A model generated the notes under the pieces. The model saw only the letters and a list, made by a program, of their open reading frames with translations. It was not told the origin of the DNA and ran no database searches. From Anaerolineae bacterium (GTDB taxonomy: Bacteria; Chloroflexota; Anaerolineae; UBA1429), in the NCBI GenBank assembly GCA_049975585.1, contig JBNGEB010000001.1, forward strand, positions 7,992-58,897: DNA of 50,906 bases. The letters are read 5' to 3'. This document shows positions 49,489-49,711 of this stretch, piece by piece; position 1 is the stretch's first letter, and every line of letters begins with the position of its first letter. The translations under genes were made by a program, and so were the position numbers.

Positions 49489-49525
49489 GCCGGCGCCTCT
49501 CCCGCACAACAGAACAGGCGCCGGC
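49489..49525 (-). terminator. GC-rich hairpin of the leader expression platform, copy 2
   Basis: On the minus strand: GCCGGCGCC, a 19-nt loop, GGCGCCGGC, followed by UCUUUGUGUCU. It has the same stem core as the hairpin at 44518-44545. Confidence 0.45.
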
Positions 49526-49544
49526 TCGGACCGTCGCAACGGGT

Positions 49545-49660
49545 TCTCCTTTCCAAATGCGGGGGGCGGGCGCGTTTCCACGGCCACCGTTCGGCCACCC
49601 ATGAGGATGGCCACGACCACACGCCATAGCAATGCCTTAGGCCATGTGGTTCGGAGATCC
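49545..49660 (-). promoter_or_regulatory. Structured 5' leader, riboswitch candidate copy 2
   Basis: The minus strand reads GGAUCUCCGAACCACAUGGCCUAAGGC...GGCCAUCC-UCAU-GGGUGGCC...GUGGAAACGCG...CCCCCCGCAUUUGGAAAGGAGA. It has the same ordered blocks and closing helix (UCUCC/GGAGA) as copy 1. Confidence 0.6.
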
Positions 49661-49682
49661 TATTCGATTGTCTGACCTGGTC

Positions 49683-49711
49683 ATCATAGCAGGGCATCCG
49701 CTCCGATGCAA
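49683..49711 (-). promoter_or_regulatory. Sigma-70-like promoter candidate for the lipoprotein unit (TTGCAT-17-TATGAT on minus strand)
   Basis: The reverse complement of 49706-49711 is TTGCAT and of 49683-49688 is TATGAT, with a 17-nt spacer. It lies about 20 nt upstream of leader copy 2. Confidence 0.45.

Follow-up and report, generated by a model that had tools for sequence, protein, structure and literature searches.

What kind of RNA stands twice, once on each strand, in front of two partner operons of an uncultured Anaerolineae bacterium (Chloroflexota), and what does it govern there? In the window, by which is meant the whole stretch of 50,906 nucleotides that was analysed, the plus-strand leader (copy A) precedes an operon that encodes a transporter of the energy-coupling factor (ECF) type and the minus-strand leader (copy B) precedes the genes for two lipoproteins that resemble the molybdenum cofactor domain of sulfite oxidases (SUOX). 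Both leaders are members of RF01055, the riboswitch family of the molybdenum and tungsten cofactors (Moco and Tuco), for which the full Rfam name is "Molybdenum/Tungsten riboswitch aptamer (Moco RNA motif)". An Rfam 15 cmscan of the whole window, with a gathering score of 36 bits for this family, matched copy B with 70.7 bits (E 4e-15) and copy A with 63.0 bits (E 6.8e-13), each along all 135 positions of the model (1-135); when the whole window was scanned permissively, Rfam gave nothing beyond these two matches, and a tRNA search of the window found none. Very probably both copies are OFF switches that act by transcription termination. When the pair was first picked out, from the letters alone (the original prediction), the family was not recognized and a novel class was implied. 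That a structured, cis-regulatory class of RNA rather than chance similarity is involved has been borne out by the full-length matches and by covariation, but the class was already described in 2007/2008 (PMC2408646), and the implied novelty is therefore unjustified for the RNA itself. The two copies are ordinary members of a textbook family of riboswitches, one that routine scanning with Rfam picks up, and the RNA as such matters little; the cargo is the less ordinary part.

The sequence blocks on which the element was originally recognized, UCUCCGA(G/A), GGCCUAA(A/G)G, G(G/U)GGAAACGC, GCC(U/C)CCCGC and UUGGAAAGGAGA, are all present and in the same order, both on direct reading and on alignment of the two copies, and the limits first assigned to them (49660-49545 and 44403-44497) fall within those set by Rfam (Table 1). 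What had been seen as a shared closing helix, UCUCC/GGAGA, is P1 of RF01055, and the longer middle arm of the minus-strand copy is the optional P3 stem of the family, the insert being of 26 nt in copy B as against the 5-nt junction of copy A. The GGAAAC present in both is the GAAA tetraloop of P4; its receptor in P2 is canonical in copy B (CCUAAG...UAUGG) and a variant in copy A (CCUAAA...CACGG), and a correlation between the GNRA loop of P4 and the receptor in P2 has been described for the family (PMC2408646). P1, P2 with its 11-nt receptor, the optional P3, P4 with its GAAA loop, P5 and the conserved junctions are all shared with known members such as those of Escherichia coli moaA and the Tuco riboswitches of Eubacterium limosum, as are the position in the 5′ leader and the expected OFF logic; terminator-type members and forms with and without P3 are likewise known. 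The differences from known members lie in the host, an uncultured member of the Anaerolineae, and in the cargo, which is an ECF importer with SUOX-fold lipoproteins, either Cys-less or with a CxC motif. The cargo has PF00174 (molybdopterin-binding fold) domains and includes none of the classical moa, mod, tup or molybdo-/tungstoenzyme genes. As to P3, it is absent from 58 of 176 family members, and it has been proposed that those with P3 sense Moco and those without it Tuco (PMC2408646), a rule that was also applied in a 2024 study of E. limosum (PMC11725836).

Table 1. Features of the two riboswitch-led operons of the window (SD, Shine-Dalgarno sequence; aa, amino acids; S, AA′ and T, components of the ECF transporter)
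Feature	Positions	Strand	Details
Riboswitch copy A, P3-lacking ("Tuco-type") aptamer	44393-44512	+	RF01055; P2-P4 junction CGAUA
Expression platform of copy A	44517-44555	+	12-bp hairpin AGCCGGCGUCGC / UCCUUU / GCGGCGCCGGCU (44517-44546), weak tail CGUGUGU
SD GGAGG (44557-44561) and ECF S-component gene (ATG 44566, 457 aa)	44557-45939	+	Pfam PF09819 1.2e-16, PF00174 1.7e-07
Fused EcfA-EcfA′ ATPase (AA′), 482 aa	45943-47391	+	NCBIfam TIGR04520 ECF_ATPase_1, 324.6 bits (cutoff 315); two ABC_tran domains
ECF T component, 261 aa	47388-48173	+	Pfam PF02361 CbiQ 5.9e-25
Lipoprotein gene 2, 169 aa	48223-48732	-	PF00174 1.7e-16, lipobox LAGC, CDCG motif
SD AAGGAGG (49451-49445) and lipoprotein gene 1 (ATG 49436 to 48960, 158 aa)	48960-49451	-	PF00174 1.8e-21, lipobox LTSC
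Expression platform of copy B	49478-49527	-	Hairpin GAGCCGGCGCCU...AGGCGCCGGCUC (49527-49487), tail UUUGUGU (49486-49480)
Riboswitch copy B, P3-containing ("Moco-type") aptamer	49529-49668	-	RF01055; GAAA tetraloop in P4, canonical receptor in P2
P3 hairpin of copy B	49592-49613	-	9 bp, loop UCAU, core GGCCAUCC-UCAU-GGGUGGCC
Putative sigma-70-type promoter of copy B	49683-49711	-	TTGCAT (49711-49706), 17-nt spacer, TATGAT (49688-49683)

For comparison, 80 loci, all from Chloroflexota and mostly from Anaerolineae, were fetched by way of an alignment of S-component homologues (related loci are labelled L with a number, L057 being the closest relative that has copy B). RF01055 is directly upstream of the S gene in all ten of the loci scanned with Rfam. 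A covariance model of our own, R1, built from 14 upstream elements, recovered 78 elements in 81 sources, gave 92 bits for copy B and 112.5 bits for copy A, and found no copies in the window besides these two. In the alignment of the 78 elements 94.2% of cells are in standard pairs compared with 80.4% in column shuffles, and 331 are double-change cells compared with 102, values reached by none of 500 shuffles, though these counts lean towards the modelled structure because the alignment was fitted to the covariance model. Sliding the 3′ partners by 1-3 columns causes pairing to fall to 34-47%. Double changes are found at 15 of the 28 pairs, with compensatory changes supporting each of P1, P2, P4 and P5, and an independent MAFFT/RNAalifold analysis of 14 sequences yielded the same helices with 13 covarying pairs. 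Two of the checks that had been suggested along with the original prediction, an Rfam scan and a covariance model with a multi-genome alignment, were run, the one giving two matches above the gathering score and the other 78 homologous elements with supported helices. As to linkage with the transporter, the riboswitch is directly upstream of the S-component operon in 65 of 78 evaluable loci. About 12 loci with the S-AA′-T cluster (L015, L018, L031, L036, L046, L047, L051, L052, L067, L071, L072 and L074) show no RF01055 match upstream of the S gene, some of them despite several kb of upstream sequence, and there the cluster may be regulated in another way.

At 17-22 nt past the closing helix of each aptamer of the window comes a hairpin whose core is GCCGGCG...CGCCGGC, and then a U/G-rich tail; the core is identical in the two, as had originally been noted. 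The predicted energies are -27.8 kcal/mol for the hairpin of copy A (folded alone) and -36.5 kcal/mol for that of copy B. A hairpin of -10 kcal/mol or below with a U-rich tail lies downstream of 74 of the 78 elements, and on comparative sequence the hairpins act like terminators across the relatives, in agreement with the terminator-type platform that was first proposed. The stem of the copy A hairpin covaries in close relatives (AGCCGGCG, CCCGGCG, UCCGGCG, GGCCAGCG, AGCCAGUGC) and the U-tracts of relatives further removed are better; the hairpin of copy B is conserved in L057 with the tail UUUUUGU. In many of the relatives the hairpin has CCUUUCC or CUCCUUU within it, complementary to an invariant GGAAAGG(AG) that is found at the 3′ end of the aptamer. 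In copy A itself CUCCUUU (44528-44534), made up of the final base of the 5′ arm plus the entire loop, is the complement of AAAGGAG (44489-44495), a segment that takes in the 3′ strand of P1. When the copy A leader is folded without constraints an antiterminator results at -76.2 kcal/mol, with AAAGGAG paired to CUCCUUU and the linker to the 5′ arm of the hairpin, and forcing P1 and the terminator gives -73.7 kcal/mol, so by prediction the two exclusive folds are nearly isoenergetic, as a riboswitch requires. The copy B hairpin is approximately 35 nt upstream of the SD and approximately 50 nt upstream of the ATG of lipoprotein gene 1, so that it cannot act by SD occlusion. Members of the family are OFF switches, and terminator platforms have been described among them (PMC2408646, PMC11725836).

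Family membership, the structure with its covariation, the hairpins and the linkage of the genes are shown for the two copies; that they bind a ligand, that it turns expression OFF and that it does so through termination, we infer. When a metal-pterin cofactor is abundant, its binding to the aptamer would lock P1, the GC-rich hairpin downstream would form, and RNA polymerase would terminate before reaching the genes. Under cofactor scarcity the hairpin's 5′ arm and loop would instead be engaged by the linker and by the 3′ strand of P1, forming an antiterminator that would permit read-through. P3-less copy A would in this way gate the ECF importer operon S-AA′-T, and P3-containing copy B the two extracytoplasmic lipoproteins, which resemble SUOX proteins and the pterin-binding protein PruR and which are encoded beside the importer in many genomes. 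Together the two copies would tie expression of an uptake module related to Mo/W-pterin to the cofactor pool of the cell.

A number of points weigh against this picture. The tail of the copy A hairpin is a poor U-tract, and neither hairpin is listed by a simple promoter/terminator consensus scan, which also missed the promoter of copy B; folding and comparative evidence were therefore used instead. The antiterminator of copy B is less obvious, as that copy is without the CCUUUCC motif, and its alternative pairing, between CCCGCA of the P5 region and a loop sequence of the hairpin, UGCGGG, is a prediction only. In the full-length minimum free energy fold of copy A the 5′ strand of P1 is paired with the SD, and a translational contribution is therefore possible. 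Copy A also begins, in the region 44377-44393, just 16 nt past the stop codon of an upstream gene, an arrangement conserved in L001-L003 and L057, and no promoter for it was found in that gap, so that the leader may be read through from the upstream gene, which encodes an 856-aa alpha-glucan-phosphorylase-like protein (DUF3417 and Phosphorylase domains), or be transcribed from a promoter inside the 3′ end of that gene. The case for termination OFF switches is, moreover, one made from sequence and folding. Lastly, the equation of P3-less aptamers with Tuco is contradicted in L041, where tandem P3-less copies precede an enzyme of the xanthine-dehydrogenase family.

This last point bears on a reading that is doubtful while being a serious possibility, namely that the two copies sense different ligands, copy B Moco and copy A Tuco, the importer then following the status of the tungsten cofactor and the lipoproteins that of the molybdenum cofactor. 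Both studies cited above treat absence of P3 as the signature of Tuco, and P3 is absent from all the riboswitches (approximately 58) that lie directly upstream of an S gene. The base before P4 is U in 57 of the 68 P3-less copies and A in all ten copies with P3, and at the base of P4 a G.U pair in the former is matched by a C/C mismatch in the latter (columns 171, 173/199 and 221 of the alignment, A4, have the differences). These fixed core differences are candidate specificity determinants besides P3, so that a different ligand preference of the two forms is possible. The P3 rule is however correlative, with P3 deletion in E. coli merely abolishing function, and the evidence that the moaA riboswitch there responds to cofactor is genetic (PMC2408646). 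No tungsten-specific gene (tupA, wtpA or AOR) was seen in the window, and the distribution of the two forms among the loci also counts against such a division. Copies with P3 precede orthologues of lipoprotein 1 in the window, L057 and L008, but P3-less copies precede multi-domain SUOX-like lipoproteins in L034, L038 and L056, and elsewhere a 132-aa open reading frame (ORF); in seven loci a copy with P3 leads a small ORF and then the same S gene. A strict rule by which P3-containing copies go with lipoprotein genes and P3-less copies with the transporter was considered as well, and given these cases it holds only in part.

The xanthine-dehydrogenase family normally uses Mo, and the simple rule that P3-less means Tuco therefore does not fit L041. 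The elements there (L041:4327-4673, minus strand) are at 4327-4450 and 4550-4673, each is accompanied by a terminator-like hairpin, and the gene that follows encodes a 913-aa protein of the xanthine-dehydrogenase/aldehyde-oxidase family with MoCoBD_1/2 and 2Fe-2S domains. That the copy with P3 reads Moco, and that the P3-less copy reads Tuco or is less selective, is accordingly kept as no stronger than weakly inferred. A single locus with one copy of each form before partner operons, together with dozens of relatives, makes a natural test bed for the idea that P3 sets specificity.

It is quite unlikely that control is translational, or dual, with the hairpin and its anti-SD-like CUCCUUU loop modulating access of ribosomes. 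The proposal has its attractions for copy A, in which just 10 nt separate the end of the hairpin from the SD, the loop could pair either with AAAGGAG or with the SD, and the U-tract is weak; besides, E. coli moaA and several of the E. limosum members are translational. Against it, the SD is outside both hairpins, the copy B hairpin lies approximately 35 nt upstream of its SD and has a UUUGUGU tail, and there are relatives with canonical terminators of hairpin and U-run, for instance ...GACGCCGU-UUUUUGUU. The chance that the shared blocks are mere GC-rich sequence resembling ribosome binding sites, or belong to an undescribed class of RNA, is practically nil: nothing was found in favour of either beyond the SD-like look of the UUGGAAAGGAGA block, and the full-length RF01055 matches with the E-values given, the strong covariation in 78 homologues and the prior description of the class (PMC2408646) rule out both.

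Under transcription termination control as just defended, what would copy A switch off? Its operon is a complete group I ECF transporter, with dedicated S, AA′ and T components encoded together, and every locus of sufficient length keeps the S-A-T order. In its membrane core the S component is homologous to YkoE, the S component for hydroxymethylpyrimidine (HMP)/thiamine: the sequence matches that of PDB 5EDL with E 3.5e-09, and an AlphaFold2 (AF2) model of mean predicted local distance difference test (pLDDT) score 80 superposes on 5EDL with a target-normalized TM-score (TMt) of 0.76 in Foldseek. The core is succeeded by a positively charged ERRR stretch and a seventh transmembrane helix (residues 201-219). 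The C-terminal half is SUOX-like, the model matching sulfite dehydrogenases and PruR pterin-binding proteins (TMt 0.65; AF2/Foldseek). Both termini of the usual S component are cytoplasmic, and with the seventh helix added the C-terminal half of the modelled protein would therefore be outside the cell, if the usual topology holds.

An S-AA′-T operon directly behind a cofactor riboswitch has counterparts in other group I ECF importers, YkoEDC and ThiW being controlled by thiamine pyrophosphate (TPP) riboswitches and CbiMNQO by the cobalamin riboswitch, and with importers of the YkoE type there is the additional likeness of the S component. What sets the present operon apart from those controlled by TPP or cobalamin is the riboswitch class, Moco/Tuco, the extra transmembrane helix and putatively extracytoplasmic SUOX-like domain of the S component, and the SUOX-like lipoproteins that accompany the transporter.

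Each of the two lipoproteins behind copy B consists, by Pfam, of little beyond one PF00174 domain. The AF2 model of lipoprotein 1 (pLDDT 83, predicted TM-score 0.75) matches Moco domains of SUOX proteins with query-normalized TM-scores of 0.70-0.72 and whole PruR with TMt 0.68-0.74 (Foldseek). The Cys of its lipobox is its sole Cys, and it therefore lacks, like PruR (PMC11194511), the Cys that ligates Mo. Lipoprotein 2 has instead a CDCG motif, conserved in L001, L003 and L057, within a shortened segment, the one that in SUOX enzymes contains the Cys ligating Mo; at the corresponding segment proteins of the lipoprotein 1 type have ...S.GED... (...MDRSEGED... in the window). In view of this difference the paralogues may bind different things, for instance a metal or metal-cofactor in the one case and a metal-free pterin in the other.

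The comparison with PruR (PDB 7KOS, 7KOM and 7RKB; PMC11194511) is instructive in both directions. In common are a small, secreted, stand-alone SUOX fold and, for lipoprotein 1, the want of the Mo-ligand Cys. PruR of Proteobacteria is, however, paired with DcpA-type enzymes of cyclic di-GMP metabolism and has a PW motif (PMC11194511), while the lipoproteins here have as their partner an ECF transporter placed under a riboswitch of the Moco/Tuco class and have the ...S.GED... segment or, in lipoprotein 2, CDCG. For neither lipoprotein was a PW motif or a DcpA-type operon partner found, and for that reason they are not filed as PruR; they are PruR-like in fold and do not belong to the PruR family; pterin binding by them is putative. 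A parallel in terms of regulation is Syntrophomonas wolfei, in which P3-less Moco RNAs precede "sulphite oxidase"-like genes and tandem Moco RNAs are also known (Regulski 2008). There too RF01055 goes with SUOX-family genes and several riboswitch copies serve one module; tandem copies occur in the present relatives L041, L034, L038 and L056 as well. The SUOX-like genes here differ in encoding lipoproteins of approximately 160 aa without a catalytic partner, and the riboswitch before them in having P3.

The importer and lipoprotein operons are genuine partners. SUOX-like lipoprotein genes follow S-A-T in most loci, and in the window and its nearest relatives they are convergent to S-A-T and have a riboswitch of their own; the functional link between the two operons that was suggested at the outset is upheld by this synteny in many genomes. 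In most of the Anaerolineae relatives, of which L017:10652-13737 is an example, riboswitch-led S-AA′-T continues with three more types of gene: one for a membrane-anchored protein of approximately 303 aa with two CxxCH motifs (56 of 80 loci), one for a lipoprotein of approximately 372 aa from the type I phosphodiesterase/nucleotide pyrophosphatase family, PF01663 (42 of 80 loci), and one or two for SUOX-like lipoproteins. Genes for the CxxCH protein and the PF01663 enzyme are missing from the window and from its closest relatives. It may be speculated that the secreted pyrophosphatase cleaves dinucleotide forms of the cofactor before uptake. In at least ten loci, including L029:4160-4540, L038, L034 and L056, the first gene after RF01055 is for a protein of 127-132 aa built of two repeats that each have a CQLG(L/C)F motif as well as a Cys, and in seven it is located between a P3-containing riboswitch and the S gene. 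Pfam gave no matches for these CQLG-repeat ORFs or for the 303-aa CxxCH protein.

With its regulation and fold in mind, the cargo is a candidate system for uptake of Mo/W or of a pterin cofactor. One version, which as a whole must be considered rather unlikely, is that of an undescribed uptake system in which an ECF importer with a PruR/SUOX-like ectodomain on its S component, aided by PruR-like lipoproteins, would salvage from outside the cell a pterin cofactor or a precursor (Moco, Tuco, molybdopterin or a cleaved dinucleotide form) and not an oxyanion, the copies with and without P3 letting the capture proteins and the translocator follow different cofactor pools. The cargo may alternatively take up molybdate or tungstate by a new route; regulation and fold are what both roles are deduced from. 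A salvage importer, if that is what it is, would be the first bacterial importer of Moco or pterin. In a comparative survey of 2013 the Moco-regulated transporters were modABC and tupABC only, and there were no MOCO sites in five genomes of Chloroflexi, these belonging to Chloroflexia and not to Anaerolineae (PMC3766115). According to a review of 2026 the way in which pterins pass through bacterial membranes was not known (PMC13259868). The literature searched, coverage of which was incomplete so that this is absence of evidence only, had no ECF transporter in a Moco/Tuco regulon and no bacterial uptake of Moco or pterin. Whatever is transported, the Moco/Tuco regulon is extended to an ECF-type importer with domains of the pterin-binding fold, and a regulatory handle is provided for a widespread Anaerolineae cluster that is now annotated as "thiamin/HMP permease" and "molybdopterin-dependent oxidoreductase".

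Another run of ECF-related genes is present on the plus strand of the window (33345-38638), with an ABC ATPase (33345-34211) and a PF12822 ECF S component (35911-36654), both identified by Pfam. It adjoins type III pantothenate kinase (36390-37424) and CoaBC (37421-38638) and is probably a cluster for pantothenate uptake and coenzyme A synthesis. The Rfam scan of the window detected no riboswitch before it.

The promoter of copy B was at first called good. The hexamers are present as described, but they agree with the consensus at 8 of 12 positions and are unlisted by the promoter scan; since TTGCGC-17-TAAGAT stands equally far from the aptamer in L057, the promoter is considered plausible on its sequence and not good. 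A better match to consensus (10 of 12), TTGACC-17-TATACT at 49746-49774 on the plus strand, points away from it and faces the gene at 49789-50898 (plus strand) for an AAA+ chelatase subunit of the ChlI/BchI type (TIGR02442/TIGR02030 matches). Both of its hexamers are conserved in L057, and as the two promoters are opposed, the 120-bp intergenic region would hold divergent promoters.

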